Assembly: GCA_035489575.1 (NCBI GenBank)
Contig: DATHJY010000007.1
Span: 1,047 to 65,046, forward strand
Source of the DNA: Verrucomicrobiia bacterium
GTDB taxonomy: Bacteria; Patescibacteriota; Saccharimonadia; Saccharimonadales; JAGQNK01
Direction of reading: 5' to 3'
DNA length: 64,000 bases
Part shown: positions 8,101-51,698 of the stretch, piece after piece
How the letters are laid out: each line of letters begins with the position of its first letter
Position numbering within the stretch: position 1 is the first letter of the stretch
The notes under the pieces: model-generated
What the model was told of the DNA's origin: nothing
Seen by the model: only the letters and a program-made list of their open reading frames with translations
Databases searched by the model: none
Position numbers and translations under genes: made by a program

Positions 8101-8461
8101 ATCCCCCGATGACCTGCTGAACCGCAGCCGTTCTAAGGGCCAGCCATTCCAGGCGGTTAAAAAAGCCCATACGGCCTGGATAACTGGCTCGAAAATAATC
8201 GAGGAGGCCCAACCGGCGCCAACCGGCGCCGTATCGGTACACCAACTAGCAGTCGAGCTGGGCACAGCCGATAAAACACTGAAGGCCAAGGCCGCAGAAC
8301 TGGGTATCTTACCCAAGCGCAGAAAAGGTGCCCGCAACCACTACGATATGTTTTTTGTCGAAGACCTAGAACCCATTCGGGCCCACTCCTATTTCAATAA
8401 AAATGGCAGCAGCAAGTACCGAGGCCGAACAAAGAGAAAGCAGCAAGAATCGGTCACCTAA
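5171..8461 (+). CDS. WhiB-like [4Fe-4S] domain fused to an SF2 (DEAH / type III restriction Res-like) helicase, with a C-terminal tail of repeated HTH-like segments
   Basis: At ~5951-6160: AACLG...VCRGCSARQAC...GIWGG, i.e. C-Xn-C-X2-C-X5-C plus the G[IV]WGG turn. Helicase motif I is PGGGKTN (~6410) and motif II is VDESHH (~6693-6710). Start uncertain. Confidence 0.75.
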   Translation: MGSRLPEASDDSERGIAYLAVDDVIPDMTSGAIEVPFATEFFLELSDVDSNGHGSDDYDPYDETLAVGRGHRELPTNRDTEWDDGISLDSLRQFRQTMGYDAIPQPQPKLKHDPVEMPDEEETEEEELSEFFIRDLLASVELQNARTAPNTDIPPALQVSTGEQTLSYWVKDQNPGDLTTEVLGELSLITISAVKDMLGIASHARTKTAEWLIENGRIPKPIGIVPYGDKKQGLPVWSKQQILIPHEKTIPQETPKTENEAWRAQAACLGSSATEYFFAERGENQEPAKSVCRGCSARQACLESALAHKEKHGIWGGTNERERRVIRRRRSLIAKRAAADGTLDGLDDHDELTLRGPLAPEVQALVDQNPALESIAISFESADLEVRDDQIQGVHAVEQAIESGKERVLYQMYPGGGKTNMAAIMADRWLSENPEKRVLYLCHDTRLLSQARARFKHILGDEEYTYGTFTGEEKDWDDPTFMFASFQTMQQQNWQEYFADQEFDLVIVDESHHSKAATYEAVLDHFLPRAINSIAMSGTIKRHDMRDIQEIWGAPVYSKTFAEAMDEKRLVWPEYIVMEDPDEEETFLTEGIDPTKLNRRIFIEARDKKIVAAAREEVRAYELRHGVKAKPLIFDTTIAHADVIARLWSEAEAAENGQTDITANAARTLHTRSKNTLEAFRNNEFPTLVTVNMLNEGIDITDVNVIIFLAATDSEPKYIQQLARGLRKKAGKPSCLVLDFPNNWGHIMMGNRAVKEIKAGRTPATQSKQWAQTALQPRMVHLDNILFTFQATRVDFVQRVKELDRDPMLPDAMSVKKYARDRSRDFRTVVRYMRILHMIPLSLPNRYGAYWLPVEYQQELDAQAGLAIEFFKPGEIRLPKALKQLGVGQTTVDKALNDGDIRLPTRNFDDGGPPGLAVDEATLALLEANPRVQKYKEVAADANSPLGEDEESVYGAALSLNVSKEVFIHALQIELGISPDDLLNRSRSKGQPFQAVKKAHTAWITGSKIIEEAQPAPTGAVSVHQLAVELGTADKTLKAKAAELGILPKRRKGARNHYDMFFVEDLEPIRAHSYFNKNGSSKYRGRTKRKQQESVT

Positions 8462-8904: not shown

Positions 8905-10797
8905 CTAAGCCAGGACTGCCTTAATTCGGCGTACACCTGCGCTACTGGCTTCTTCTTTGGTGATTTTGAATTTCTTGCCGTCTTCAAAGAGTTGGAGCGT
9001 GTGGTCGACGTGGGGACCACCACAGATCTCAAAGCTAAAGGGTTTGTCTGCGCCGTCAGCAATCATCTTGTATACCTTGACCGTGTCACCGTAGCGGTCG
9101 CCAAACTGGCCCAAGGCGCCCTTTTCTTCACGCGCGACTTTTGTCGGGTATTCTTCCCAAGATACTTTGAGGTCTTTGGCGATCTGCTCGTTCACGATTT
9201 TCTCTACTTGGTCCAGCTGTTCCCGTGTTACTTTTTCGGGATGGCTAAAGTCAAAACGTAGGCGCTCTTCGGTAATATTGCTGCCGCGCTGAATGACATG
9301 ATCACCCAATACTTCGCGTAAGGCCTGGTACATCAGGTGCGTGGCGGTGTGGTATTTCTTGTGCTGCAGGGTTTGTCCGCCCAGGCCACCCTTGAAGGTG
9401 CCTTTGGCGGCCGTCTGTGAACGCTCGCGCTGTTCTTTCATTTTGGCGTCAAACTCTTTCTGCCACTCAGCAGAGACTTCGATACCCTGCATGGCCGCCT
9501 CTTCTACACTGAGCTCTAATGGAAAGCCGTAGGTATCATAGAGCGTAAAGATATGGCTGCCATCAAGCTTGCCAGCGCCGCCCATTTTTTGCAGTTCTTT
9601 TACGCCCTTGCGAAGGGTTTGGCGAAAGACCTTTTCTTCGCGAACCAGTATATCAACCACTTCCTGGCGCTTTTCGGCTACTTCTGGGAAGTCCTCGTGA
9701 TACAGATCGGCAATAGCGGGTACGATTTGTTCCAGGAAGTTCTGTTCGATACCCAGGTCAAAGGCAAAGCGGATAGCGCGACGCATCAGGCGACGCATAA
9801 CGTAGCCCTGCTCTTTATTGCTGGGCACCACACCGTCTACGGCCAGGAAAGTCGCGCTCCGCAAGTGATCTGCAATCACACGCATGCTGGTTGTGTGGCT
9901 ATCGTATTTTTTGCCAGACAGCTCTTCCAGCCGCTGCACAATTGGCCACATGATACTGATCTTGAACATATCGGGGCTATTAATAGCCGCCATGGCGATA
10001 CGCTCCAAGCCACCGCCAAAGTCGATGTTTTTCTTGGGCAGCTTTTCAAATCCTTGCTCGGTACGCCGATACTCCATGAGTACGTTGTTACCGATTTCTA
10101 CAAACCTGCCGCAATCGCAGTTGGGGTGACATTTTTCACCATATTCGGGATTGTGATCTACAAAATCAAACTCATAAAATATTTCGGTCGAGGGACCGCC
10201 CGGCTCACCCGGGGGCATGTCACTAATTTTGCCATTCCGGCACCACCAATTTTTGGCAGCATCATAAGCAAAGATACGCTGGCCAGGCTGCATGCCAGTT
10301 GCCGCGGCGTTTTCCTCGGACCCTAGGTCGGCCTCGGTGGCGTCGATGCCCTTAGCCTGGAATAGTTTTTTCCAGATGTCGGCAGACTCGGTGTCTTTAG
10401 GAATAGAAAACTCTTCACTACCAATAAAAGTAGTTACATAGAGTTTCTGCGGATCTAGCCCCACCACATCTGTGTAGAATTCAAAAATCCAAGGTAATTG
10501 CTCGGCCTTAAAATAATCCCCGAGTGACCAGTTGCCCAGCATCTCGAAGAAAGTATCGTGACGATTATCACCCACTTCTTCTATGTCTTGTACGCGAATA
10601 ACAGTTTGGCTGTCTACCAGTTTGGTGCCCTGTGGGTGCTCCTCGCCCAACAAATACGGGACCAGCGGCTGCATGCCGGAGCCCGTGAATAATGTAGTTG
10701 GGTCGTTTTGTGGCACCAGAAGTGCCCGCGGAATAACGGCGTGACCGCGTTCTTTGAAGAATTCAAGGTAGGCTTTTCTGATTTCTTGGGCATTCAT
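8905..10797 (-). CDS. alaS: alanine--tRNA ligase, short form (catalytic, tRNA-binding and editing domains; no C-Ala domain)
   Basis: MNAQEIRKAYLEFFKERGHAVIP...FTGSGMQP N-terminus and the HTATHLM editing motif; ends GGPHV...GVRRIKAVLA. Start at 10797; the track ORF extension to 11337 is antisense to a GC-rich ORF. Confidence 0.9.
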   Translation of the reverse strand: MNAQEIRKAYLEFFKERGHAVIPRALLVPQNDPTTLFTGSGMQPLVPYLLGEEHPQGTKLVDSQTVIRVQDIEEVGDNRHDTFFEMLGNWSLGDYFKAEQLPWIFEFYTDVVGLDPQKLYVTTFIGSEEFSIPKDTESADIWKKLFQAKGIDATEADLGSEENAAATGMQPGQRIFAYDAAKNWWCRNGKISDMPPGEPGGPSTEIFYEFDFVDHNPEYGEKCHPNCDCGRFVEIGNNVLMEYRRTEQGFEKLPKKNIDFGGGLERIAMAAINSPDMFKISIMWPIVQRLEELSGKKYDSHTTSMRVIADHLRSATFLAVDGVVPSNKEQGYVMRRLMRRAIRFAFDLGIEQNFLEQIVPAIADLYHEDFPEVAEKRQEVVDILVREEKVFRQTLRKGVKELQKMGGAGKLDGSHIFTLYDTYGFPLELSVEEAAMQGIEVSAEWQKEFDAKMKEQRERSQTAAKGTFKGGLGGQTLQHKKYHTATHLMYQALREVLGDHVIQRGSNITEERLRFDFSHPEKVTREQLDQVEKIVNEQIAKDLKVSWEEYPTKVAREEKGALGQFGDRYGDTVKVYKMIADGADKPFSFEICGGPHVDHTLQLFEDGKKFKITKEEASSAGVRRIKAVLA

Positions 10798-10845
10798 GGC
10801 ATGCATTATAACAGAGGTGAACAAAACTAGCCAATCAGACAAATA

Positions 10846-10874
10846 TTGATTTGTATATATTTTTATGTTATAAT
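10846..10874 (+). promoter_or_regulatory. sigma70-type promoter of cassette C1
   Basis: TTGATT (10846-10851), 17 nt, then TGtTATAAT (TATAAT at 10869-10874). Confidence 0.5.
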
Positions 10875-10962
10875 AGCAGAGCATGTGACTAGGGTGAAAA
10901 CTCGTTACCTGCGCCATTGACGCTGCAATCTCCCACAAGCCTCCAACCCAAGGAGACACCCC

Positions 10963-11394
10963 ATGTCCGACATTTCCAGCTCCCCCGTGGTCATCCGGCA
11001 TACCGACCTCGGCACCTACGTCGTCACGACCCCCGAGGACTTCGACTGCAACGACCCCTCCGCCAAGTGGGCGATCGACAAGGTCAACGCGGTGCTGAAC
11101 TTCCTGGCCCAGGCCGAGCCCCTCCTGCGTGACACCATGCAGGTCCCCCTGGTCGACGGCCAGCCCCCGCGAGGCACCCGTGCGCTCACCTACGGCGAGT
11201 CCTTCATGACGGACTACACGCTGGTGCACCACGACAACGGTGTGCACAAGCTGCTCATCAACATCGTGGTGTCCATGCCGACCATCAACGCCGCGGCGTA
11301 TCACGCAGTGGCCGTACTGACGCGCCACGCCCTGCATGGCGCAACGTCGCTCAACCAGCTGCTGATCAACGGCCTCCAGCTGATGAGCGCCTAG
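10963..11394 (+). CDS. cassette C1: GC3-rich hypothetical protein (143 aa)
   Basis: AAGGAGA SD at 10950-10956. 18 of the first 20 codons end in G/C, against 10 of 20 for the adjacent alaS. No recognisable domain. Confidence 0.7.
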   Translation: MSDISSSPVVIRHTDLGTYVVTTPEDFDCNDPSAKWAIDKVNAVLNFLAQAEPLLRDTMQVPLVDGQPPRGTRALTYGESFMTDYTLVHHDNGVHKLLINIVVSMPTINAAAYHAVAVLTRHALHGATSLNQLLINGLQLMSA

Positions 11395-11405
11395 GGGCCA
11401 TGATC

Positions 11406-11439
11406 GGGGCGAGCACTTCCACCATAAGGTGCTCGCCCC
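11406..11439 (+). terminator. GC hairpin 3' of C1
   Basis: GGGGCGAGCAC pairs with GTGCTCGCCCC 12 nt after the stop, followed by a C-run, a pyrimidine tract and TTATTTTTATT (to ~11497). Confidence 0.4.
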
Positions 11440-11559
11440 TCAGGCCTGCCCCCGCTCCGTCTCTGTCCGCCTATTGTTCTGTCTATTATTTTTATTCCAC
11501 GCTTAAAAAGTGATTATTTTAGCAGCTGTACTAAACCACCAGTATTATAGTTTTCGATT

Positions 11560-11940
11560 ATGGATACACTTATACCCCGAGACCGCTCCTCTTCACCAGC
11601 CCAAGACCTGTCTTTTCCCTTTCGGGTAGATGACGATGGTCTACATCTAGACCGGACAGAGGCCCAGCTCGTTTACGACGATCTGACCGATTCACGTATA
11701 AATGGTAACGACGCCCTTCTGGGGCATTTGCATACCGACCTTCAGGGTGCGCTAGAGGCTGATGAACTCCCTGATGCGCTTAGCCTCAGCAGAGAGCACA
11801 TTGTTGGGCTAAAGATATATTACGGCGAAATCGCTAACCAGATGGATCGCGCCGAACACAGGGGTGTCCGAGTCTACGGGCGCTACGTCACGATACTATC
11901 TGGCCTGATCCCACTGCCTTCCCCCGACGAAGTATCATAG
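11560..11940 (+). CDS. hypothetical acidic protein (126 aa), intermediate GC
   Basis: ORF between C1 and C2 on the same strand, with no recognisable domain. Confidence 0.5.
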   Translation: MDTLIPRDRSSSPAQDLSFPFRVDDDGLHLDRTEAQLVYDDLTDSRINGNDALLGHLHTDLQGALEADELPDALSLSREHIVGLKIYYGEIANQMDRAEHRGVRVYGRYVTILSGLIPLPSPDEVS

Positions 11941-11953
11941 TTCTTCCTGTGAA

Positions 11954-11982
11954 TTGATTTAAAACTAATTTTATGCTATAAT
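11954..11982 (+). promoter_or_regulatory. sigma70-type promoter of cassette C2
   Basis: TTGATT (11954-11959), 17 nt, then TGcTATAAT (11977-11982). Confidence 0.5.
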
Positions 11983-12171
11983 AATATAGTTAGCGTCTCT
12001 GGTATTTCTTGAGTCTCTAGCACTTTTATAACAGACAGAACGATATGATCCAGTTGAGCAGCAGGCCCGCTTTTACCATAAAAGTGAGTGTGCTGCTCAA
12101 CTGGCATCTTTTGGCAACCCAGCCAACAAGCAGCCGCTGACATCCTGCCCACCCCAAAGAATTGAGGCCTC

Positions 12172-12615
12172 ATGCCCACCGAACAACTCACCACCCTGCG
12201 CCGGATCGACACCCCTACGGTGCGGATCTCCCTGATGAGCAAGACCAAGAAGGAAGTCAACCCGGACGACCTGCCCGACTGGCTCGTAAGGCAGCTCGAC
12301 ACCCTGGAGCGGTTCCTGCGGCAGGTCGCACCCTACCTGGGAACGACCGACGACGATGAGGTCCGCACCTTCTCCTCGCCGCAGGCCATCCAGCCATGCT
12401 CGAACTACAACGGCTTCATCACGCTGCGTGATCCGGACAGCGACTTCCCCAAGTCCGAGGCCGAGGTGCATGTCGATGTGGAGCTGCCCTACGAGTACCA
12501 CGACAGCTTCGTCCCCCTCGTGTTCAGCGTCTGCAAGATGGCTCAAGACCACGTGGGTGGCACCTTCGGCTTCGTCGGCTTCGTCGTGAGCCAGATCCAC
12601 CGCTACGGCAAGTAG
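12172..12615 (+). CDS. cassette C2: GC3-rich hypothetical protein (147 aa), distant paralog of C1
   Basis: GC3-rich ORF. It shares a W-x3-(K/Q)-x5-FL-x-Q-x2-P-x-L segment with C1 (DWLVRQLDTLERFLRQVAPYL versus KWAIDKVNAVLNFLAQAEPLL). Confidence 0.7.
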   Translation: MPTEQLTTLRRIDTPTVRISLMSKTKKEVNPDDLPDWLVRQLDTLERFLRQVAPYLGTTDDDEVRTFSSPQAIQPCSNYNGFITLRDPDSDFPKSEAEVHVDVELPYEYHDSFVPLVFSVCKMAQDHVGGTFGFVGFVVSQIHRYGK

Positions 12616-12631
12616 CCACTCACGGTAACCA

Positions 12632-12665
12632 GGGGCGGGCGCCTACCATCATTGGCGCTCGCCCC
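12632..12665 (+). terminator. GC hairpin 3' of C2
   Basis: GGGGCGGGCGCC pairs with GGCGCTCGCCCC, followed by a C-run, pyrimidine tract, CTGTCT box and T-run. Confidence 0.4.
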
Positions 12666-12719
12666 ACGGCGTGCCTTTTTGCCCCCTTGTTGTCCGTTCT
12701 GTCTGTTATTTTTTATTAC

Positions 12720-13904
12720 TTACCGTGGCGAAATGCGAATAATCTTGTCCTGGCTGCTGCCATTATCGGTGGTTAGATACAGCTCTTCATTTGGGCCCAT
12801 AACTGCACTACGCAGCCGGCCAAATTCGCCCTCGAACAGTGTTTGCTGGGACACTACTTTGTCATTGATTATTTCCAGCAAGCGCACCTGCTTGTCCTTA
12901 AGGACCGCCATGGCCAAGCGACCATTGAAGTCCTTCCACTTAGCGCCAGAGACAAAGGTCATACCAGAGGGTGCGATAGTAGTCTCGCCCGAGTTCCACA
13001 CAGCATCCACGGCATCTGGAAACTTGGCCTTGTCTGTCATGGGAAAGTTCTCGTCGTAAGATGGCGGACCAGGACTCCACCCCATATTGCCTTTGATTAG
13101 TTTGTTCACCTCATCCTCCCGGTCCACGCCATGCTCTACGCTATAGCCATACACACCACCACGCGGCACCTGGTACATAGCCAACCCCTGTATATTGCGG
13201 TGCCCGTAGTTATAAATACGTGGGTCAAATGCACCGCCCAGATTATCCGAGACTGGCTTGCCGTCGCGGTCCACCCGCAACACCTTGCCAGACAGACTCT
13301 TTGGATCTTGCGGATTGGTGTAAATAGCTGAGTCACCGGTGCCTATCCATAGATTGCCATCGGCCCCAAACCGTGGACGACACCCCGAGTGACGTCGATT
13401 GGGCGTCTGTGGCGTAACCGGGTACGACTTGATGCCCGTCACAATATCTACCTTGTCAGTCAGACCGGTAACGTCAGCATTTACTTTCCAGCGGCTCACC
13501 CGAATATCTGGACGGGTATCGTAGCAGGCATAGATGTAGCGATTGTCTTTGAACTGGGGATCTATCGCCAAGCCCAATAGACCGCCCTCGCCCACAGCGT
13601 ATACATCTGGTAGTTTGTACACAATGGCTTTTTGCCCCTGCGCTAGCTTGCTAATGGTGCCCGCCCGTTCGGTAAATAGCATGGTGTCGTCGGGCAGAAA
13701 GGCCACATCCCAGACATTGTTCAGCTTATCCAGCACGATCTGGCGCTGCAGATCAGGGGCGCCCAATTTGCCTTCCTGAACCATCTGGGCGTCGTCGACC
13801 GCAGGGGCCAGCGCCTGGCGCACACGCACAGTCAGCCACAGGGCCACGCCTATGGCAAGTACACCGATGCCCAAGAGGAGCAACGTCCCACGCCTATTCT
13901 TCAT
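12720..13904 (-). CDS. PQQ-dependent sugar (glucose/sorbosone) dehydrogenase-like beta-propeller, secreted
   Basis: Signal/TM N-terminus MKNRRGTLLLLGIGVLAIG and YliI/GSDH-like motifs (HSGCRPRFGADGNLWIGTGD, YNYGHRNIQGLA). Confidence 0.75.
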   Translation of the reverse strand: MKNRRGTLLLLGIGVLAIGVALWLTVRVRQALAPAVDDAQMVQEGKLGAPDLQRQIVLDKLNNVWDVAFLPDDTMLFTERAGTISKLAQGQKAIVYKLPDVYAVGEGGLLGLAIDPQFKDNRYIYACYDTRPDIRVSRWKVNADVTGLTDKVDIVTGIKSYPVTPQTPNRRHSGCRPRFGADGNLWIGTGDSAIYTNPQDPKSLSGKVLRVDRDGKPVSDNLGGAFDPRIYNYGHRNIQGLAMYQVPRGGVYGYSVEHGVDREDEVNKLIKGNMGWSPGPPSYDENFPMTDKAKFPDAVDAVWNSGETTIAPSGMTFVSGAKWKDFNGRLAMAVLKDKQVRLLEIINDKVVSQQTLFEGEFGRLRSAVMGPNEELYLTTDNGSSQDKIIRISPR

Positions 13905-13976
13905 ACCTCTATGGTACCACGCCTCATAACTCAACAGCCCATCCCATATTCATCACCCTTTCCAAACCGCTCTCTC

Positions 13977-14023
13977 GCTCATTTCAGGGTCGAACCCTGA
14001 AACAGGGTTCGACCCTGAAATGA
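13977..14023. repeat. REP-like palindromic element (copy 1)
   Basis: CTCATTTCAGGGTCGAACCCTG, AAA, then CAGGGTTCGACCCTGAAATGAG: a perfect 22-bp inverted repeat. Related copies occur at 58734-58797. Confidence 0.8.
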
Positions 14024-14057
14024 GGACTCTGGATGAGGATCTCGCATAATATGGGTA

Positions 14058-14825
14058 TTATTTGATGATGAAGACTCCGAGTAGTGGCGAATGATCAGAG
14101 GGAGAGCGCGGCAGAACGTTGAACTCCTCTAAGTGCAGCTCGCCGTGTTTTGTCCAAAGTATATTGTCGTAGTTAGCAAGAGCAATCCGCCACTTTTGGC
14201 CATTCCAGCGCCAGGTGGGGTTTCGCAGCGAACCAGTGCGTCGCCCAAGGTGCTGGGGCATGCGAAGCCACGGTGCCATATATTTTGTTTCGTTAAAGTC
14301 ACCACCAATTATCACGCTCTTATGCGCGACGCTTTCCAGCAGCTTTTCGTAAGTTCGGCGGTGCTTAACATGCGTGGACCAGTTCATAAAGAACAAGGCA
14401 GCCAGATAATTTACGACGATGGCTACATCTTCTCCGCCGAATCGCAGGTGTGCCTCTATGGCTTTTACGTGGTAGCCTTGGTAGCCGCGCGCTTTGTTGG
14501 CCTGCGTATCCGGCCCCAGCCGGTGATCAACTATTTTGGTGGGCTTTTGTTTGGTTACCAGTGCGCTACCAATCATCCACTGATCTGACATAGGGCTAAA
14601 CGGTGCAAAGTGCGTTTTGTACCCCTGCTTCTTGAAATAGTCCAGCACCGGGGAGGCGTTGGTCTGACGATGGACCAGCACCTCATTTAGCCCAAATACG
14701 TCAGGGTCGTAGGCTTTTATAAAGTGGTCAAATTTTGCCTGCAGCTTGGAACCGTCGTCACGCCGGCCACTCTGTACCTGCTCCCAGATATTCCAAAAAA
14801 CAACAGTTACCTGTGTGTTTGCCAT
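14058..14825 (-). CDS. endonuclease/exonuclease/phosphatase (EEP) family protein
   Basis: VVFWNIW near the N-terminus, IIGGDFNE, and SDHSPLLGVF near the C-terminus. Start at MANTQVT (14825). Confidence 0.75.
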   Translation of the reverse strand: MANTQVTVVFWNIWEQVQSGRRDDGSKLQAKFDHFIKAYDPDVFGLNEVLVHRQTNASPVLDYFKKQGYKTHFAPFSPMSDQWMIGSALVTKQKPTKIVDHRLGPDTQANKARGYQGYHVKAIEAHLRFGGEDVAIVVNYLAALFFMNWSTHVKHRRTYEKLLESVAHKSVIIGGDFNETKYMAPWLRMPQHLGRRTGSLRNPTWRWNGQKWRIALANYDNILWTKHGELHLEEFNVLPRSPSDHSPLLGVFIIK

Positions 14826-14874
14826 GCAAATAACTATATCAAGTACAAAGCGCGACATGCATGATTGTCCAAAC

Positions 14875-14903
14875 TTGCAAAAAGTAGTTTTATATGCTAA
14901 AAT
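14875..14903 (+). promoter_or_regulatory. sigma70-type promoter of cassette C3
   Basis: TTGCAA (14875-14880), 17 nt, then TGcTAAAAT (14898-14903). Confidence 0.5.
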
Positions 14904-15062
14904 AGTTTTATCTCTATCAGAGGCTACGTCTCGTTAGAGTACCTTTATAAGCAGACAGGATCCTGTGGTCGGGTGTGAAATAAGCCTATCAACTATAGTG
15001 ATAGTTTTATTTCACATTCGACCAACCCCGACACGGGCACATGCCCGACACCAAGGAGAGAC

Positions 15063-15485
15063 ATGCTCCAGACCCTAACCCAGACGGCCAAGAACGGCGC
15101 GGACATCGCCATGCGACTGCTGGCGCCTTACGGCCTCGACATCGACTTCCGGAAGACCAGCTTCGGCTGCATCCTGTTCATCCTCGCAGAGAGGAAGTGG
15201 CACGCCGAGTGGAACCTGGCCCAGCAACGGGTCGAGGAACACTCCGAGCGAGTGAAGAGCCTGGAGGGCACCATCGGTGGCTTCGCACAGCACTTCAGCG
15301 GCAACGCCAGCTGGCATGCGATCAGGACCACCTTCATGGGTCATGACCTCAGCCTGTTCATCGCCATGGCCGAGGGCTACCACACGAACGCCGAACAGCT
15401 GGACTACCTCCTGCACTGGCTGAGCAACCCCCAGGCCGAGACCAGCCGCCTCGAGGAAGTCCTCAGGACGACGCGCCACCACTAG
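15063..15485 (+). CDS. cassette C3: GC3-rich hypothetical protein (140 aa)
   Basis: AAGGAGAG SD at 15053-15060 and a GC3-rich ORF. Distantly similar to C4b (KW-x-W/A, GH-E/D-L and DYLL-x-x-L segments in the same order). Confidence 0.7.
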   Translation: MLQTLTQTAKNGADIAMRLLAPYGLDIDFRKTSFGCILFILAERKWHAEWNLAQQRVEEHSERVKSLEGTIGGFAQHFSGNASWHAIRTTFMGHDLSLFIAMAEGYHTNAEQLDYLLHWLSNPQAETSRLEEVLRTTRHH

Positions 15486-15638
15486 CGGCCACTGACCCCG
15501 CAAGTCGACAGGACTGGACATAGGTTCAGGACACTGCTGGCTGCTGCCCGTGCTCCCCCTTTGTCCAGTTCCTGTCTGCTTGTTTTTCTTTTACGCCCCT
15601 CTGGGCTATTTTTTATACTATGCCCAGATGAAAGCGGG

Positions 15639-15666
15639 TTGATTTTTTATAATTTTATGGTAATGT
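15639..15666 (+). promoter_or_regulatory. promoter of cassette C4
   Basis: TTGATT (15639-15644), 16 nt, then TGgTAATGT. Confidence 0.4.
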
Positions 15667-15858
15667 ATACGCAACTCTAAGGTGCCGCTTGTGGCACCTC
15701 TATTAGAGTTCTTTTACAAGCAGACAGATGATGGATGAGTAGCAAGGCTATCTTTGCCCGGTAGTTTTGCTACTCATCCATGTCAAACGACAAAGGTTAG
15801 ATGCGACAATCGGTTGCGTCTAGAGTCCATGGACTCTGAGTTCCTTTTGGAGGCCATC

Positions 15859-16311
15859 ATGAAAGAAGGCGTCAAGAACTTCCTCCGTACCCTCTACAAC
15901 ACCCTCCGCACCATGCTCGACTCCACCCAGACCGAGGGCACTTCCGACCCCGAGCCCAGGCCCAACATTCCGGTTTACCGTGGCGCCCGTTGCTGCATCA
16001 GCATCGACGTGTTCGACGGCGACGAAGAACTGACGCGTCGGGCCGAGGCTTTCCTGGCCGCACTGGCCACGCATGACCTAGCCCTGGTGAACTACATAGA
16101 CCACTTCCCCGGAGGGATTCGTGTGTTCATCCGCCCCTTCCCGGGCGAGCACGATCTGGTAGTCAAGTACTACAAGCGCGGCAATTGTCTGGACCGTCGA
16201 GCCGCGACCTACCTGACCATCCTGGTCGAGGAGTTCTTCCGCGCCGACAACGTCGACGGACTGGCGATCGAACTCAGCAAGACAAGCTCCATCCCCGCAC
16301 ACATCCGCTAG
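15859..16311 (+). CDS. cassette C4a: GC3-rich hypothetical protein
   Basis: GGAGG SD at 15848-15852 precedes the ATG at 15859. An alternative in-frame ATG lies at 15829; the track start at 15754 falls inside the leader hairpin. Confidence 0.65.
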   Translation: MKEGVKNFLRTLYNTLRTMLDSTQTEGTSDPEPRPNIPVYRGARCCISIDVFDGDEELTRRAEAFLAALATHDLALVNYIDHFPGGIRVFIRPFPGEHDLVVKYYKRGNCLDRRAATYLTILVEEFFRADNVDGLAIELSKTSSIPAHIR

Positions 16312-16346
16312 TGCCGCGACACTCATTACAGACTGGAGATACCAGC

Positions 16347-16817
16347 ATGCTGGTTTCTGTCCTGAGCTTCCTGACTTGCTTCAAGGTGGAACACCTGGTC
16401 GATGAGTTCAGGAGACGGTTCGCCCCCGACCCCGAGCTCAACGTCATGGACAGCACCGCCCTCATTGGCATCGTGATCAGCTTCACCGCCGACCAGGAAA
16501 AGTGGCGCTGGCAAAGTGCCAGGCACGCAGTGCTACACCACTGCATCCGCCTACGCCGGATACACGAGGACATCCACTCCTTCCTGGAGCGCTTCGAAGA
16601 CTGCATCGGGAGTCGACCCGAGCTAGTGACGGACTACCGAGGCCACGAGCTGCGGACATGGTTCGACTGTAAGGGCGACACCGGGCTCTCCATGGCCGCC
16701 GCGGACTATCTGCTGCGAGTACTCGCCATGGTGGACGCCACCGACAAGCAACTCCGGAACGCTCTGCGCATCACCGAACTCCCCCAGGATGCCGCCATAG
16801 TGGCATCCGCGTCGTAA
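16347..16817 (+). CDS. cassette C4b: GC3-rich hypothetical protein (156 aa), second gene of the C4 unit
   Basis: GGAGA SD 7 nt upstream of the ATG, 35 nt after the C4a stop. Paralog-like to C3. Confidence 0.7.
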   Translation: MLVSVLSFLTCFKVEHLVDEFRRRFAPDPELNVMDSTALIGIVISFTADQEKWRWQSARHAVLHHCIRLRRIHEDIHSFLERFEDCIGSRPELVTDYRGHELRTWFDCKGDTGLSMAAADYLLRVLAMVDATDKQLRNALRITELPQDAAIVASAS

Positions 16818-16979
16818 CCGTAGCCCTCATGGGCCAAGCAGCAGGGCTGGACGAAGGCTCAGGATGTTGCTGGCTGATGCCGGTATCTCCCCCTTTGTCC
16901 AGTTCCTGTCTGCTTGTTTTACTTTTTATGCCACGCCCCTGTGGGCTTTTTTTATACCACCGCATAAGAAGGGGCAGGA

Positions 16980-17008
16980 TTGAATTTTATTAACTTTTAT
17001 GCTATAAA
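16980..17008 (+). promoter_or_regulatory. sigma70-type promoter of cassette C5
   Basis: TTGAAT (16980-16985), 17 nt, then TGcTATAAA (17003-17008). Confidence 0.45.
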
Positions 17009-17037
17009 ATTGATATAACGTACTCGCTTACTCCCTG

Positions 17038-19296
17038 ATGAGAAAGCTTTTTTTGTTTGCACCTTCCACTGAAGTGGACCGACAAAGGATCACGCACTTG
17101 AGGATCATCCACTCAAAGCAAAGTTTGCCCACCGAAATTGTCGGCCAGAAGTGCAACGGCTCCCTGTTCCTGGGAGGCGCACTGCCGCGGTCCGACAAGA
17201 TCAACCAGGAGCCTGCCCACTGGCGATCCGACGCCTACCGCTTTCTGGCCGAAAGGTTCGACGGCACCGTCCTGACACCCGAACGCCAAGAGGGCAGCCT
17301 GGCCTCCTACGTCAGCCAAGCCGACTGGGAGCAGGCTGCGCAGAACAGCGCAGACGTCATCTTCTACTACATGACCCGAACGGCCGACATCCTGGCCCTC
17401 AGCACCAACACCGAGGTTGGCCAGTACATCCGGTTCGGCCCCCAGCGTGTCGTGCTGTGTATTCCCGAGAACGCCGATTTGGCGATGAAGACCGAGTTCC
17501 AACAAACCGTTGCCAAAATGCAGGGCATCGAGCCGATCATCGGCCTCGAAGCCGGCCTGGAGCATGCCATCAGCCTGATCGGCGAAGGCGCCGAGCGACA
17601 TGGTGGCGAGTGCCAGGTACCCCTGTACGTATGGCGTACGCCCAGCTTCCAAGCCTGGAACAACGCCCTCAAGGCCGCCGGCAACCGGCTGGACAACTTC
17701 CACCTGGACATGACCCTCTGCCCCGTGCCAGCCTTTGTGCTGTTCTGGGCGGCAAAGGTCAGTATCTGGGTAGCCGGCGAGGAGCGTCACAAGGACAACG
17801 AGTGGGTCATTTCCCGCCCTGACATCTCGCACTGTGTGCTCGTATACCGCAAGGGACCGAAGACACACATAGTGGGTGTGCGGGAGTTTCGCAGCACTGT
17901 CCGCAACGCGGATGGCTACGTCTACGAAGCAGCGGGCGGCAGCTCTGCCAAACCCAGCCTGGACCCCATCCAGGTGGCGATCGACGAAGTTCGGGAAGAA
18001 ACCGGCCTACGGCTCCGCCCCGCGCAACTTCGCTTTGTGGCTTCCCGCCAGCTTGCAGCCACCACCACGGCACACCACGCCTACGTGACGGTTGCCGAGC
18101 TAACGGACGAGCAGTACCAGCAAGCGCTGGCCCAAGAGGGCACCTACGCCGGCGACCTGGCCGACAGCGAAATGACCGCTCTGACCGTGTCGACACTCAC
18201 CGAGCTGTTCGCCGGCGAAGAGCTGGACTGGTCCAACCTGGGCATGACCGCACAAGCGTTGCTCCAACTGGACGCCGAGCACAAGCCCAAGTACACCGTG
18301 GCCAGTTCGGCCGGCCAGACGTACGCCCTTGTCATATTGGACGCACTGACCGGCTCGGCCCTGGACACCATCCTGGGCATCATGGCCGCCGGGACCACCG
18401 TGGTCTATGCCGGACCCCAGCAGGGCAACCTCGGCTTCGAGCAACGCGTGGACATTGCGACCACACTTGGCTTGTTTGCTGACAAGCTGACCCAGCAGGG
18501 CATCGACGCCCAGTTCATCCACCTGGCCGGAGACGGCGAGGACCAGCTGAGGCGTTTGCAGGCACTGGTGGAGCCGGACAACCTGACCGTCTTCGCCTTC
18601 GTGGGCGACTACGGACTGAGTCCGGACGCAATCCGACAGGTCCAGCTGATGCGCCACCGTGGCGTCTCGGTCGTGGGCAGCTGGTGTGGCAGTACGCCGC
18701 AACCAGAGCTGTTGGTCGTGAATGGCTCGTTAGCCGCACCCGACATCGGGTATGTACCTTTTGCCAGGCAGTGGTCGCAGTCCGGCAGCGAAGTACAGAT
18801 CTGCACACCGCAGGACTGTGCCGTAGTGTCAGTCGGTCGGCTCACGCCAGCCGCCTACTACCGGTTGGCCGGATTGTTGATCGCCGGGACGCACCTCATC
18901 TACGGAGGAGCACCCGTCGACCAAGAAGCCCCCGAGGGCCGTATCCACCTGACTCGTTCGCTGAGACTGATGGCTGCCAAGCTTGGTGTTGCCGGCATCC
19001 CCGCCCGCGTCACCACGTTCGAGGAGCCAGACGTCGAGAGTCGTCGTCTGAAGTTGCTCGCGCTCGCGCAGCAACACTGCGCCCCGGTTCTGGCCTTTGT
19101 CGATGACCAAGGCTTGGCACCTGGCGTAGCCCAAGAATGTGCGTGGGCGCGCGACTGCGGCCTGCCGGTTACCGGCCTGTGGGTCGGATCGTCCGGGGGG
19201 TTCGAGCTCAGAACTCTGGGCGATGCCCTGGACGTGAACGAGGCCTCACTTCAGCCATTGGCGCAGATGCGTCAGCCAGGCCTGGTCCTGGCGTAA
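17038..19296 (+). CDS. cassette C5: GC-rich multidomain protein with a nucleoside 2-deoxyribosyltransferase-like domain, a Nudix domain and two Rossmann-like (SLOG/DUF2493-like?) repeats
   Basis: Nudix box GGSSAKPSLDPIQVAIDEVREETG (~17931-18006). The N-terminal LFLGGAL...ADVIFYYM...STNTEVGQY pattern resembles NDT/Rcl-type folds. Two similar ~140-aa C-terminal repeats each end in V(V/T)G(S/L)W. The true start is probably downstream of 17038, because the first ~20 codons are AT-rich leader. Confidence 0.65.
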   Translation: MRKLFLFAPSTEVDRQRITHLRIIHSKQSLPTEIVGQKCNGSLFLGGALPRSDKINQEPAHWRSDAYRFLAERFDGTVLTPERQEGSLASYVSQADWEQAAQNSADVIFYYMTRTADILALSTNTEVGQYIRFGPQRVVLCIPENADLAMKTEFQQTVAKMQGIEPIIGLEAGLEHAISLIGEGAERHGGECQVPLYVWRTPSFQAWNNALKAAGNRLDNFHLDMTLCPVPAFVLFWAAKVSIWVAGEERHKDNEWVISRPDISHCVLVYRKGPKTHIVGVREFRSTVRNADGYVYEAAGGSSAKPSLDPIQVAIDEVREETGLRLRPAQLRFVASRQLAATTTAHHAYVTVAELTDEQYQQALAQEGTYAGDLADSEMTALTVSTLTELFAGEELDWSNLGMTAQALLQLDAEHKPKYTVASSAGQTYALVILDALTGSALDTILGIMAAGTTVVYAGPQQGNLGFEQRVDIATTLGLFADKLTQQGIDAQFIHLAGDGEDQLRRLQALVEPDNLTVFAFVGDYGLSPDAIRQVQLMRHRGVSVVGSWCGSTPQPELLVVNGSLAAPDIGYVPFARQWSQSGSEVQICTPQDCAVVSVGRLTPAAYYRLAGLLIAGTHLIYGGAPVDQEAPEGRIHLTRSLRLMAAKLGVAGIPARVTTFEEPDVESRRLKLLALAQQHCAPVLAFVDDQGLAPGVAQECAWARDCGLPVTGLWVGSSGGFELRTLGDALDVNEASLQPLAQMRQPGLVLA

Positions 19297-19369
19297 ACGC
19301 GTTTGACGCAATCACCCGAGAGGGGGTCTTTTCGGGTCAAACCGATCTGACCTCCTCACGGGTAAATTT

Positions 19370-20425
19370 TTATACTACGATACCGCCGCCAAGCACTGTG
19401 TCTTTATCATAAATAACGGCGGACTGACCTGGAGTAATGGCCCGCACTTGCTCGTCCAAAATCAACCGTATACCCGTATCTGCCTGCTCAATTGTGCATG
19501 ACACCAATGGCGCTCGATAGCGCGTGCGCACTTGATACTTCTTATCCAAGTTTGGTTGGCCGTTTATCCAGTGCACATCTGTCAGGGCTAGCTCTTGCTT
19601 CCACAAGTTCTCATCATTCAGGTTGGTGGTCACATACACCTCGTTCTTGGCCATGTCTTTGCCGGTGACATAGTACGGCAAGCCACCACCCACGTTCAGG
19701 CCGTGGCGCTGGCCAATGGTGTAAAAAATAGCGCCGTCATGCTCGCCAATGGCTACACCATGCTGCTCTTTTATAACGCCCAGTTCGGTAGTGACATACT
19801 GGCTCAGAAAATCACGGATGCCGACCTTACCCACAAAACAAATGCCCTGGCTGTCTTTTTTCTCGGCCGTGGTCAGACCCAGCTTTTTGGCCAGTGCCCG
19901 TACCTCGGCCTTGGTTTTGTAGTCGCCAATGGGCATCAGGCTTTTTTTGAGCGCGTCCTCCGTAACTCGACATAAGAAATATGTCTGATCTTTTTCGGCA
20001 TTGGCCGCCACCAATAATTGCCCGTCTTGTATCCGAGCGTAGTGGCCTGTGGCAATCAAGTCTGCACCGTCTGCTAGGGCGGTGTCGAGGAACAACCTGA
20101 ACTTGACCTCTTGGTTACACATGATGTCTGGGTTGGGCGTACGGCCAGCCTGGTATTCGGCAATCATGTAGTCTACGACTTTTTGCTGGTACTCGACCTG
20201 GAAGTCGTACATCTTAAAGTCTATGCCCAGCTGCACCGCCACGCGCTTGGCGTCCTGGTAGTCTTCTTTCCACGGACAGGGCATACCGGGCAGGTCTTTG
20301 CTCCAGTTTTTCATGTACACGCCCACCACGTGGTAGCCCTGTTCTTTCAGCAAAGCAGCAGTAACGGAGCTATCTACTCCGCCACTCAATCCCACATAAA
20401 CAGTCTGCTTTTTCTGGGGCTTCAT
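19370..20425 (-). CDS. mnmA: tRNA 2-thiouridine(34) synthase MnmA
   Basis: VYVGLSGGVDSSV PP-loop with a full-length MnmA-like body. Confidence 0.9.
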   Translation of the reverse strand: MKPQKKQTVYVGLSGGVDSSVTAALLKEQGYHVVGVYMKNWSKDLPGMPCPWKEDYQDAKRVAVQLGIDFKMYDFQVEYQQKVVDYMIAEYQAGRTPNPDIMCNQEVKFRLFLDTALADGADLIATGHYARIQDGQLLVAANAEKDQTYFLCRVTEDALKKSLMPIGDYKTKAEVRALAKKLGLTTAEKKDSQGICFVGKVGIRDFLSQYVTTELGVIKEQHGVAIGEHDGAIFYTIGQRHGLNVGGGLPYYVTGKDMAKNEVYVTTNLNDENLWKQELALTDVHWINGQPNLDKKYQVRTRYRAPLVSCTIEQADTGIRLILDEQVRAITPGQSAVIYDKDTVLGGGIVV

Positions 20426-20591: not shown

Positions 20592-20912
20592 GTGGCAACC
20601 GCCACACCAACCCTACCCCAGCTCGCCGAAGACAAGACGCTGCTCTCCATGGTGCCCCGCACCGAGACCAGACCCTTCCTGCGGTTCTGGACCAAGTCCG
20701 TTGTGCTCCCCGGCGAGTACTACATCGAAGTAGACGGCCAACGCCTGTTCGAGTACGAGCTGATCAGCTCACGCTATGTGTTGGCACTAGCCACTATGCA
20801 GTGGCATGGCACCTGCGCACCGGTAGACAATCTGGACGCCCAGTACGAGATCCTCACCGAGCAAGCCTTCCCGGATCTCCGTCATCGGATCGTCGGCATC
20901 CGCCGTATCTGA
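20592..20912 (+). CDS. cassette C6: GC3-rich hypothetical protein (106 aa), GTG start
   Basis: GAGAGGTGG SD precedes the GTG start. GC3-rich ORF with no recognisable domain. Confidence 0.65.
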   Translation: MATATPTLPQLAEDKTLLSMVPRTETRPFLRFWTKSVVLPGEYYIEVDGQRLFEYELISSRYVLALATMQWHGTCAPVDNLDAQYEILTEQAFPDLRHRIVGIRRI

Positions 20913-33556: not shown

Positions 33557-33927
33557 CTGAGTCCCGTCCCAATCCACGCCACAGCTATCGCATCGGGCAC
33601 AATAGACCATACCACCAGTCGCCCCAGCTCAATCTGCGCGGCCTCATGCTCTTGAGCATCTATATAAGAGTCAACAAATTCGATGGGATCACCCTCATCA
33701 AAGTTATCACCACCAATTTTCTGTCCTCCGGGAACGCCGTCTTCCATGCACTCAACCATTTTCTTGCTAATGGTATCCTGTTGCTCGTTCTCCAGATCCC
33801 GGCATGTCTCGGCCGTAATAATTTTGCCTTCTGCAATCTCGTTCGTATGATTTTCAACCGCCGCACCAAGCCCTACACCAACTGCAAGCGAAAGACCAAA
33901 CCCAGCCACCGCTTCATATGCCCGCAT
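33553..33927 (-). CDS. hypothetical small membrane protein
   Basis: Start at MRAYEAVAGFGLSLAVGVGLGAAV (TM helix); acidic middle region and hydrophobic C-terminus. Confidence 0.45.
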   Translation of the reverse strand: MRAYEAVAGFGLSLAVGVGLGAAVENHTNEIAEGKIITAETCRDLENEQQDTISKKMVECMEDGVPGGQKIGGDNFDEGDPIEFVDSYIDAQEHEAAQIELGRLVVWSIVPDAIAVAWIGTGLS

Positions 33928-34032
33928 GTATCGCTCCTTATATATTACGATACAAAGTATACTAGATTGCACAAAGCTTGTGTTAAAAATAAAACATCGA
34001 TGACATGTAAAGAAGTGCTTACCTCTCCTGCG

Positions 34033-34417
34033 CCAGACAGGCGATTGCAGAAACATGACTGTCCAGCCAGCGAGATACTATCTGGCTCCTGCGGAACTCC
34101 CTACGGTCAAACATCCTCGGACCGCAGGTATCATCTCGCTGGCTAGCCAATCAGTTTCCACAAAGCCTGATCTGGTCGCAGGAGAGGTAAGCCGCACCGC
34201 TAGACCTTGGAGAGCGGACTGTCTTCTTGGGAGTGCTCAGCGTGAGCGGCTTGCGCCTCATACCCTCAGATCAGGCTTTGAAAAACTGATTGAACAAAAT
34301 AACCAAATCTAACCGCGTGGTGAGGACCAGCCCCTTGCGGGCCGACTGAAAGGAGTTCCGGAGGCACCGGTGATTTGGTTATTTTGGGCAGTCCTGTTTT
34401 TTCAACCGCCTGTCTGG
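34033..34417. other. ~385-nt ORF-free nested-helix element (candidate structured RNA or composite palindromic repeat)
   Basis: An outer stem (34033-34064 with 34386-34417) encloses three long hairpins: 34065-34146, 34149-34302 and 34307-34385. Confidence 0.4.
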
Positions 34418-34450
34418 GGGTGTGGGGCACAAGCACTTAAAATAACGAGC

Positions 34451-51024: not shown

Positions 51025-51053
51025 TTGACAAATATTAAGTATTAAAGTATAAT
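51025..51053 (+). promoter_or_regulatory. consensus sigma70 promoter of the C9 three-gene unit
   Basis: TTGACA (51025-51030), 17 nt, then TATAAT (51048-51053). Confidence 0.6.
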
Positions 51054-51185
51054 AAACATATTCTCAGGTGGTCGCACTTGCGTATCATTTGAGCACTTTG
51101 ACATGTCAGGCAAATCGTTTGGGATATGGATACGAGCCATCTTGTGATGTTTCATATCCATACCCCAACCGAGAAACGAGATTCC

Positions 51186-51392: not shown

Positions 51393-51469
51393 TCGAACGA
51401 GTCCGGAGAGTCTTCGGCCTCACCCGAGCCATCGTCGCGTTTCGCAACCCCCAGCAACAGGAGACATCC

Positions 51470-51682: not shown

Positions 51683-51698
51683 CCCCGGAGGTCAGATC

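Follow-up and report, generated by a model that had tools for sequence, protein, structure and literature searches.

The window analysed here is a 64-kb stretch of DNA (64,000 nucleotides) from the genome of a soil-dwelling member of the Saccharibacteria. In this genome, several genes that are rich in GC and look foreign form one transcription unit each, and the 5' and 3' untranslated regions (UTRs) of such a unit carry 12-16 bases that are complementary to each other. This raises the question of whether the two boxes of a unit pair in the transcript, act as sites on the DNA, or do neither. Most likely the boxes join the ends of the mRNA in a loop and are not sites of DNA recombination, because the complementarity is kept though the sequence changes. 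It is fairly probable that they are the two strands of a selected long-range 5'/3'-UTR RNA helix of 12-16 bp, situated within a conserved UTR frame, with a putative role in protecting the ends and insulating the message.

Layout of the boxed units

Three box pairs reported in an earlier note on this DNA, in units C2, C3 and C4, are present as perfect complements of 15, 12 and 12 nt, respectively. The same layout was found in three further units, C8 in the window and L027 and L046 in other Saccharibacteria, giving six complete boxed units. A truncated seventh copy, L128, has the same leader. The promoters, transcription starts and 3' ends described below are all predicted, and the features of C2, C3, C4 and C8 lie on the forward strand.

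The C2 promoter (11954-11982) reads TTGATT-17-TATAAT with a TG extension and matches 10 of 12 consensus positions. The leader has a 5'-terminal hairpin (11990-12020), followed by the 5' box ATAACAGACAGAACG (12028-12042), which is unpaired when the leader is folded by itself, and, directly 3' of the box, a long hairpin with 26-nt arms (12050-12104). The cargo ORF (12172-12615, GC3 0.89) encodes an orphan protein of 147 aa. Beyond a GC-rich 3'-UTR hairpin (12633-12666) lies the 3' box CGTTCTGTCTGTTAT (12695-12709), 80 nt beyond the stop codon (12615), which together with a T6 run spans 12695-12715. All 15 pairs are present in the minimum free energy (MFE) fold, with a probability of 0.98. C2 has no canonical terminator; there is only a weak hairpin, and its T-run is 10 nt away.

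The C3 promoter (14875-14903) is TTGCAA-17-TAAAAT, also with a TG extension. The 5' box (A)(U)AAGCAGACAGGA (14947-14960) forms 12 Watson-Crick pairs, then U.G and A-U, so that the perfect 12-nt match of 14949-14960 with 15570-15581 extends to 14 bp with one U.G (14947-14960 with 15570-15583). A long leader hairpin (14966-15024) precedes the cargo ORF (15063-15485, 140 aa, GC3 0.90), whose product is a distant paralog of the C4b protein. The 3'-UTR hairpin CAGGACTGGACA...TGTCCAGTTCCTG (15509-15574) is kept in C4 and in L128, with a compensatory change. The 3' box TCCTGTCTGCTTGT (15570-15583) is followed by T5CT4 and by a small GCCC/GGGC hairpin with T6, which was identified by eye.

The C4 promoter, TTGATT-16-TGgTAATGT (15639-15666), was likewise recognized by eye and falls under the scanner threshold. 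The 5' box ACAAGCAGACAG (15716-15727) is the perfect 12-nt complement of the 3' box CTGTCTGCTTGT (16906-16917), which lies within a 34-nt block identical to that of C3. Between them are a long leader hairpin (15731-15781) and a cargo region of GC3 0.80 (15859-16817) with two ORFs of 150 aa (15859-16311) and 156 aa (16347-16817). The scanner found a terminator-like hairpin with T7 after the 3' box (16931-16944).

The C8 promoter (51025-51053) matches the consensus at 12 of 12 positions. Its 5' box TGACATGTCAGGC (51099-51111) is unrelated to CAGACAG and has the usual position, 46 nt after the -10. The cargo (51186-51863, starts approximate) consists of three small GC-rich ORFs for putative membrane peptides. 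The 3' box GCCTGACATGTCA (51937-51949) is followed by a terminator-like hairpin (51972-51988), again found by the scanner.

In each unit the 5' box starts 44-50 nt downstream of a strong -10 of sigma-70 type, a distance estimated earlier at about 45-60 nt, and this holds for the non-homologous C8 box. The 5' box sits in a single-stranded gap, with the 5'-terminal hairpin on one side and the long hairpin on the other. The 3' box is found after the 3'-UTR hairpin and before a U-run or terminator; in C2, C3 and C4 the T-run follows it directly, as had been noted. Both boxes fall between predicted promoter and predicted terminator. The terminator-like hairpins downstream in C4 and C8 and the smaller one in C3 place the 3' box, by prediction, within the transcript. 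The proposed frame would run from a strong promoter through a 5'-terminal hairpin at the predicted start, a short spacer, the single-stranded 5' box and the long hairpin to a Shine-Dalgarno sequence and the GC-rich cargo ORF or ORFs, and then through the 3'-UTR hairpin, a C-rich tract and the 3' box to a U-run or small terminator.

The box sequences are of three unrelated types that share one position. C2, C3, C4, L027 and L128 have boxes of the CAGACAG family, to which the L027 box is homologous; the L046 box TGUAACGAAAAGUUC and the C8 box are unrelated to it.

Position, covariation and folding

Exact inverted repeats of at least 11 nt, 200-3000 nt apart, number 59 across the window versus about 35 in shuffles, and the repeats of shuffled windows reach 12-16 nt. 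The length of the boxes alone is therefore not significant, since window-wide inverted repeats of such length arise by chance. Copies of the motif CAGACAG number 24 across the window, with 8.8 +/- 2.8 expected, and only six of them are in UTR context. The non-random feature of the boxes is their position. The longest complementary runs between cognate 5' and 3' UTRs are 15 nt in C2, 12 nt in C3, 12 nt in C4 and 13 nt in C8, lengths that were reached by 0, 0, 1 and 1 of 500 shuffles, respectively. Non-cognate UTR pairs give 5-9 nt, with the exception of C3 and C4 combined, which have one common box.

These results bear on the suggestion that the complementarity has no function and is a passive leftover of the origin or duplication of the UTR module, carried along with the cassettes. 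The adjacent C3 and C4 have nearly identical modules, C1 keeps a 3' box without a partner, and repeats of this length do occur by chance, as would fit such a leftover. However, the contrast between cognate and non-cognate pairs is strong, and C8 and L046 have unrelated boxes at one position. Furthermore, double substitutions that compensate each other, and an indel present on both sides, occur among C2, C3/C4 and L027, and the UTR blocks outlast the coding sequence in genomes whose MnmA is about 70% identical. A functionless origin is very improbable.

The compensatory pattern that the earlier note had seen is right: there are three unrelated boxes, and compensatory substitutions inside the homologous ones. 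Judged from the sequences of other genomes, it is stronger than could be seen in the window alone. In a homology-registered alignment of the four complete homologous copies (C2, C3, C4 and L027), 87% of the cells pair, compared with 32-44% when the partner is slid by 1-3 columns, counts that lean towards structure because the register was set by hand with the proposed helix known. Four pairs have changed on both sides, one of which (columns 19/40) is, in C4 and L027, no more than an isolated pair lying past mismatches. The observed value was reached by 7 of 500 shuffles. The substitution series across the boxes include U-A / U.G / C-G, G-C to A-U and A-U to G-C, and in C2 one G-C pair is missing on both sides.

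The same compensatory pattern would be expected of a single-stranded-DNA helix under selection. In C3, L027 and L046, internal G.U pairs make the helix longer, and they do so only on the transcribed strand; the L027 helix has 16 bp in the sense strand versus 12 bp in the antisense strand. The count of three internal G.U against zero internal A.C is only weak evidence as to the strand.

Folding of the full transcripts, which had been proposed as a check, showed that each of the six complete units (685-1258 nt) has the helix in its MFE fold, with a mean pair probability of 0.95-0.99. When the leader is folded by itself, the 5' box is largely unpaired between two hairpins in C2, C3, C4, C8 and L027. 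The L046 box is also unpaired, with a different flanking structure. The predicted pairing is backed by both structure prediction and covariation, as expected of the class of the hbs, icaR and hok-fbi mRNAs. The complementarity is specific for cognate UTRs, fixed in position, kept through turnover and compensation, and thermodynamically dominant. Rfam 15 gave no match at gathering thresholds in the window, and at E<=1 the region 10800-17100 yielded no relevant hit.

Possible recombination at the DNA level

Two readings of the boxes had been offered, a transcript panhandle and attC or terminal inverted repeat (TIR) sites; the evidence favours the first and speaks against the second. In the wider form considered here, the boxes would be DNA-level recombination sites: attC-like, TIRs of a mobile cassette, or repeats of an invertible segment that flip the ORF relative to an external promoter. 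This is improbable, but several features resemble what such sites would produce. Cassettes accumulate in a single alaS-mnmA hot spot of variable length, and homologous frames enclose cargo that is unrelated or has diverged extremely. The sites of attC also conserve structure, not sequence, and the repeats leave the promoter outside, as would be needed for a switch that flips the ORF.

Nevertheless, the ORFs tested across the 64-kb window gave no integrase, invertase or transposase domain (Pfam). The attC R''/R' consensus RYYYAAC/GTTRRRY is absent from the boxes, with no GTTRRRY at the edge of ATAACAGACAGAACG, AAGCAGACAGGA or TGACATGTCAGGC. No target-site duplications or direct repeats flank the boxes of C8, L027 and L046. 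Each unit brings a consensus-like promoter of its own, and C9 has the inverted orientation. Since no integrase, attC cores, target duplications or promoterless arrangement were found, the attC/TIR reading finds no support.

The geometry also argues against recombination. The arms of a pair are 600-1200 nt apart, far over the span of an attC-type hairpin, and both boxes are present in the isolated single cassettes L027 and C8. Homology between frames does not start at the edge of the 3' box but some 60 nt upstream of it, and it runs past the boxes on both sides. G.U-type positions interrupt the repeat at the DNA level. All assembled copies recovered (two from Logan, and from ENA and JGI) are oriented as in the window.

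Across cassette junctions the box arms are 132-538 nt apart, with a promoter between them. The imperfect palindrome of about 150 bp that had been likened to attC at the C3/C4 junction is present as a by-product of adjacent cassettes having one box type, not as an attC-like site. As in an integron, unrelated small genes form an array at one locus and each unit has a complementary pair whose structure is kept. The array differs from an integron in having no intI, attI or Pc in the window, no core-site consensus, mixed orientation, and a promoter outside the repeat in each unit; its arms flank an ORF at 600-1200 nt, whereas attC is one palindrome of 57-141 bp. The tests for an integron cassette were negative, the window lacking IntI/attI/Pc and core sites and the units being neither promoterless nor uni-oriented. 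Those for a TIR transposon or MITE were also negative, there being no target-site duplication or transposase, homology beyond the boxes, and no paired copies in viral contigs. In the latter, used as a negative control, the leader pattern had 38 chance matches, none with a complementary partner within 3 kb.

Proposed function and distribution of the frame

If the boxes pair as an RNA helix, the whole coding region would become one closed domain, and the leader hairpin and the 3' hairpin would meet at a multi-way junction. The helix probably forms in vivo. By analogy with Bacillus subtilis hbs, its likely role would be to protect the leader and the two ends of the mRNA against ribonucleases, and to keep the folding of coding sequences of foreign composition insulated.

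In hbs mRNA, a 14-bp interaction of the 5' UTR with the 3' UTR modulates RNase Y cleavage (Braun, Durand & Condon 2017, PMC5737220). The likeness consists of a helix of about 14 bp between a highly structured leader and the 3' UTR of one mRNA, which in hbs modulates ribonuclease access (PMC5737220). However, hbs is a single housekeeping gene, whereas here many unrelated genes of foreign type have interchangeable boxes in a conserved modular frame.

The icaR mRNA of Staphylococcus aureus similarly pairs its own UTRs, a pyrimidine-rich motif of the 3' UTR binding a purine-rich sequence of the 5' UTR (Ruiz de los Mozos et al. 2013, PMC3868564). The target in icaR is the Shine-Dalgarno region, so that translation is blocked and RNase III recruited. 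In contrast, the 5' box in C2, C3, C4, C8 and L027 is 100-140 nt upstream of the Shine-Dalgarno sequence, which is left free. The Shine-Dalgarno region is touched only by a 9-nt helix in C6 (GAAAGAGAG/CTCTCTTTC) and by a secondary helix in C8.

In hok/sok-type toxin mRNAs, an fbi (fold-back inhibition) element pairs the 3' end with the 5' end and the message is stable. These mRNAs encode small membrane toxins and are controlled by antisense RNA and 3' trimming. As in full-length hok mRNA, pairing of the ends here would close the whole message. However, most cargo proteins are 140-270 aa long, small hydrophobic peptides occur only in C8, and no toxin signature was found in the cargo proteins. 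The term fold-back inhibition is used in PMC3562002.

The helix might also be real and act as a processing or termination signal rather than in protection, which is possible but rather unlikely. For termination, the long-range stem before the U-run would be the stem of an intrinsic terminator. For processing, the helix stacked on the 20-26-bp leader hairpin would be an RNase III target setting the mRNA level. The helix does end straight at the U-run in C2, C3 and C4, with C2 lacking a canonical terminator apart from the weak hairpin, and a near-perfect long hairpin abuts the box in every boxed leader; in icaR, the 5'/3'-UTR pairing makes an RNase III site (PMC3868564). However, no U-run directly follows the 3' box in C8, L027 and L046, separate small terminator-like hairpins lie farther downstream in C3, C4 and C8, and 12-16 bp is short for RNase III unless stacked. 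To our knowledge, there is no precedent for a terminator stem around a loop of 600-1200 nt, which counts against termination.

The frames surround actinobacterial-type or orphan genes that gather at one hot spot of soil Saccharibacteria, between alaS and mnmA, the length of which varies across genomes from about 20 nt to 8.6 kb. The proteins of C3 and C4b are 26% identical, and their 3' UTRs have the common 34-nt block. Diverged family members have a GC3 of 0.8-0.9 versus about 0.58 for the genome's genes. One speculative and rather doubtful view of the frame is that of a dedicated expression-and-exchange chassis for fast-diversifying genes with actinobacterial codons at this hot spot. The panhandle and flanking hairpins would provide one standard mRNA architecture, resistant to nucleases, for any cargo, and the near-invariant frame would provide homology arms with which cargo could be swapped by natural transformation and recombination. 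A chassis would also have to explain why frames are far better conserved than proteins and why deeply diverged members keep their high GC3.

Bacterial long-range 5'/3'-UTR pairing has so far been a matter of a handful of single genes; here it would be a reusable module. The module surrounds many unrelated genes, orphan or acquired horizontally, of an epibiotic bacterium of ultra-small size, and the sequence of its frame is more conserved than the proteins. If the protective helix acts in the proposed way, it would amount to a simple design rule, independent of sequence, for stabilizing or insulating foreign mRNAs and would give a handle on the domestication of actinobacterial-type genes by Saccharibacteria. 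The frame architecture could also serve synthetic expression cassettes.

Not every unit has the panhandle. It is absent from C1 and C5, and the match is just 7-11 nt long in C6, C7 and C9 (opposite strand, 50389-50634). About 13 other GC3-rich ORFs, several of them doubtful gene calls, were flagged in related loci, and two have a panhandle. The degenerate 3' copies that had been listed at 11475-11488 and 56538-56547 are present, neither with a convincing 5' partner; the first is in the C1 3' module GTTCTGTCTATTATTTTT (11472-11489), which is homologous to that of C2, and the C1 leader has no 5' partner. The string listed at 52781-52797 is also present and is probably unrelated, because no match beyond 8 nt occurs downstream of the neighbouring ORF. 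L128 carries a very distant family member (E 3e-15 versus the profile); its leader and 3' UTR are nearly identical to those of the frame, and its 3' hairpin has a compensatory G-C to A-U change.

Architecture of the boxed units

The GC-rich cassette units C2, C3 and C4 each carry complementary boxes in the 5' and 3' UTRs, at the coordinates reported in the earlier note. The C2 pair (12028-12042 and 12695-12709) is perfect over 15 nt. The C3 pair (14949-14960 and 15570-15581) spans 12 nt, or 14 bp when extended with one U.G pair, and the C4 pair (15716-15727 and 16906-16917) spans 12 nt. A further unit, C8, has the box TGACATGTCAGGC (51099-51111), which is complementary to GCCTGACATGTCA (51937-51949). 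This box is unrelated to the CAGACAG family of C2-C4 and starts 46 nt past a 12/12 promoter, a distance like that in the other units. Of the degenerate copies that had also been proposed, the one at 52781-52797 has no 3' partner. At 56538 the sequence CTGTCTGTCT is present, but it forms part of a local hairpin loop, and the 11-nt pair of C7 (56033/56591) is doubtful.

In the boxed units, an AT-rich sigma-70 promoter resembling the consensus is followed by a hairpin, which begins at the predicted transcription start. The 5' box comes after a spacer of some 7 nt. A long, near-perfect hairpin, the sequence of which varies from unit to unit, is situated directly 3' of the box. Next come a Shine-Dalgarno sequence and the GC-rich ORFs, of which there are one to three. 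The 3' UTR then has, in this order, a hairpin, a C-rich tract, the 3' box and a U-run. C3 and C4 have an extra small terminator-like hairpin beyond the U-run.

The window has 59 exact inverted repeats of at least 11 nt at a spacing of 200-3000 nt. Since shuffling yields about 35 such repeats, reaching 12-16 nt, box length by itself is no departure from chance, and the signal is positional. Upon comparing the 5' UTRs of all cassettes with all 3' UTRs for exact runs, the longest complementary runs between cognate UTRs were found to be 15 nt (C2), 12 nt (C3), 12 nt (C4) and 13 nt (C8). Non-cognate combinations gave 5-9 nt, except for C3 with C4, which have a common box. Shuffled 3' UTRs matched the cognate run lengths of these four units in 0-1 of 500 cases. 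These matrices, together with folds of full transcripts, replaced RNAduplex, which was uninformative on entire UTRs because large interior loops raise all scores.

The helix formed by the two boxes (the panhandle) is missing or weak in C1, C5, C6, C7 and C9, about half of the GC-rich units. Of about 13 further ORFs with high GC3 that were flagged in related loci, 2 have it, and several of these ORFs are doubtful gene calls. The panhandle thus characterises only some of the frames, the conserved UTR sets surrounding the cargo ORFs, and not all acquired genes.

Covariation, folding and the probable function of the boxes

Complete boxed units were found in two other Saccharibacteria. In the first (L027), mnmA and alaS are separated by a single cassette, and MnmA is 69% identical to that of the window. 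The leader of this cassette, CCTTTACAAGCAAACAGGGA, is homologous to the C3 and C4 leaders and pairs with the 3' box, TCCTTGTTTGCTTGTA, over 16 bp including one G.U pair. A G-to-A change in the core is answered by a C-to-T change in the partner. The second (L046) has a box that is distinct again, TGTAACGAAAAGTTC / GAGCTTTTCGTTACA, forming 15 bp including one U.G pair and followed by a second helix, CAAGAGAAAGG / CCTTCTCTTG.

C2, C3, C4 and L027 were aligned by homology, with the register set by hand using N placeholders, which favours the structure. In this alignment 87% of the pairing cells can pair, as against 32-44% when the 3' partner is shifted by 1-3 columns. Two-sided changes occur at four pairs, compared with 0-2 in the slid controls, although for one of these (columns 19/40) the pairing is isolated, past mismatches in C4 and L027. 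The observed value was attained by 7 of 500 shuffles. One box position is U-A in C2, U.G in C3 and C-G in C4 and L027; two others change from G-C to A-U and from A-U to G-C, and in C2 one G-C pair is gone from both strands simultaneously. Internal G.U pairs extend the helices on the sense strand only. The compensatory pattern claimed earlier is borne out by the two-sided changes at four pairs in the hand-set register and by the unrelated boxes of C8 and L046.

Folding of full transcripts, the check suggested in the earlier note, placed the box helix in the minimum free energy structure of all six complete predicted transcripts (685-1258 nt), with mean pair probabilities of 0.95-0.99. When the leaders were folded alone, the 5' box was largely single-stranded between two stable hairpins in five of the six (C2, C3, C4, C8 and L027), as would be expected of an interaction site. 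The box is also unpaired in the lone L046 leader, where the flanking structure is different. The complementarity of the 5' and 3' UTRs is fixed in position, independent of sequence, covarying, thermodynamically dominant and set among conserved hairpins.

The earlier note had offered two readings, a transcript panhandle and attC/TIR-like sites. Position, covariation and folding support the former, whereas the latter is not supported. Were the boxes DNA-level sites (attC, TIR or inverton), they would have to be reconciled with several observations. The window yielded no domain of an integrase, invertase or transposase, the attC core consensus is absent from the boxes and there are no target duplications. 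The promoter of each unit lies outside its repeats, one unit is in inverted orientation, and isolated cassettes have both boxes. Homology of the frames begins about 60 nt 5' of the 3' box and not at the box edge, and every assembled copy has the orientation seen in the window. An inverton is still a possible, though improbable, reading. The "palindrome" at the C3/C4 junction proves to be a mere consequence of two neighbours having one box type. Retron a1/a2 and DGR readings were dropped, as the window has no reverse transcriptase and the repeats have an ORF between them.

As a transcript panhandle, the box helix would form in the mRNA and enclose the coding region in a single domain. The likeliest effect would be to shield both ends and the leader from ribonucleases, and to insulate the folding of the foreign GC-rich coding sequences. 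This effect is proposed by analogy with the hbs mRNA, which has a 14-bp helix between its 5' and 3' UTRs (PMC5737220). Other roles at the RNA level are possible. The helix might be a long-range terminator stem, in agreement with the U-runs that abut it in C2-C4, but no U-run abuts it in C8, L027 or L046. It might also stack on the leader hairpin to form an RNase III target. The frames with boxes are a modular, previously unseen form of a feature known from bacterial mRNAs, and the lineage that has them is poorly studied.

Frames, cargo and the mnmA-alaS gap

The proteins of C3 and C4b (the second ORF of C4) are 26% identical (pairwise E = 1e-6), and the identity of their coding DNA is near random. 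Nevertheless, their 3' UTRs (15509-15625 and 16842-16960) have an identical 34-nt block, in which both the C-rich tract and the 3' box lie. L128, a contig of 1 kb that comes from another sample, encodes a very distant protein of the same family, preceded by the leader GTTCTTTCACAAGCAGACAGGAT and a long hairpin. The L128 3' UTR (940-1007) differs little from that of C3, and the contig ends at the 3' box. The block that is identical in C3 and C4 is almost unchanged here although protein identity is about 26% or less, and the 3' hairpin has a compensatory G-C to A-U change. Because the 3' UTRs match where the C3, C4b and L128 coding sequences scarcely do, the frame is far more constrained than the proteins, or is undergoing homogenisation.

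The boxed cargo proteins are orphans or members of a tiny family. A word-indexed search of 5.8 billion proteins with C2, and with a C3 + C4b profile, found no relatives beyond the queries. An exhaustive profile search found four distant relatives of the C3/C4b family (P0013-P0016), all on one 49-kb contig; P0013 is the protein encoded by L128. The array on this contig, [144][152] GSDH [157][150][125][142][144][197][274] mnmA, occupies the same hot spot. Among 72,556 plasmid records, relatives of the DUF397 protein (Pfam E = 1.4e-18) and of the Nudix / deoxyribosyltransferase-like cargo were found on actinomycete replicons only.

The GC3 of the cassette ORFs is 0.73-0.92 and that of host genes 0.53-0.63, but GC1 and GC2 do not differ between the two. 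High GC3 is found at 10963-11394, 12172-12615, 15063-16817, 17038-19296, 20592-20912, 50389-50634, 51186-51863 and 56079-56507. Cargo family members at about 25% identity all retain it, which is not what simple amelioration after transfer would lead one to expect. Highly conserved frames contrast with hyper-diverged, high-GC3 cargo.

The synteny of mnmA and alaS is kept across about 55 related loci (window 8905-20425; L009-L088). The gap is an insertion hot spot, because it measures anything between about 20 nt and 8.6 kb and the long gaps contain GSDH, an EEP-family gene and GC-rich cassettes. In 80 related metagenome loci, L027 was the only one with a CAGACAG-type 3' module. An unbiased helix scan of the gaps, with G.U pairs allowed, was noisy. 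The leader pattern gave 38 chance matches in coding regions of viral contigs, none of them paired. When genome contigs were scanned for the EEP protein, the only matches were in two distant Saccharibacteria (41-51% identity), both without cassettes at the EEP locus. Another related locus, L019, has on its minus strand two direct copies (11050-11120 and 11720-11790) of a 3' module that measures about 80 nt and consists of the hairpin CCGCATGAG...CTCATGCGG and a T-run. The copies flank a two-ORF GC-rich cassette that adjoins mnmA. Terminator modules are therefore common to neighbouring cassettes in other genomes too.

Host and other features of the window

The window is chromosomal DNA of a soil Saccharibacterium, and one of the flanking genes has its closest relatives in Candidatus Saccharibacteria MAGs. 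The source MAG is named "Verrucomicrobiae bacterium" at NCBI (locus tags VK694_...). The bin was probably given a wrong taxonomic label, because gene content and closest relatives point to Candidatus Saccharibacteria. Look-ups of exact protein matches lengthened the window by no more than 1.5-2.8 kb. The longest AlaRS ORF (8905-11337, minus strand; 810 aa) starts about 180 codons before the Pfam domain and overlaps C1 on the opposite strand. The true start is near 10797 (MNAQEIRKAYLEFF...), as confirmed by alignment with relatives. In a 1096-aa protein (5171-8461, plus strand), Pfam labels place a WhiB domain at the N-terminus, joined to a DEAD / SNF2-type helicase. Elsewhere, WhiB is typical of Actinobacteria and their phages.

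No Rfam family matched the window at gathering thresholds, and E-value mode gave nothing relevant at 10800-17100 and 33900-34560. There is no tRNA or tmRNA in the window. An intergenic region of about 390 nt (34030-34420, plus strand) has a multi-branched fold of exceptional stability, with a minimum free energy of -194 kcal/mol (z = -9.8 against shuffles). The structure is closed by CCAGACAGGCG / CGCCUGUCUGG, the core of which is identical to that of the cassette boxes. Rfam gave no match to it even at E<=1, and an 85-aa ORF within it has a GC3 of 0.45 and is non-coding in appearance. This region is perhaps a structured RNA that is either very divergent or not yet described. A perfect 22-bp palindrome with a 3-nt loop, CTCATTTCAGGGTCGAACCCTG / CAGGGTTCGACCCTGAAATGAG, separates the GSDH gene from the EEP gene at 13978-14024. 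Its weak matches to miRNA families in Rfam are spurious, and it is probably a bidirectional terminator.
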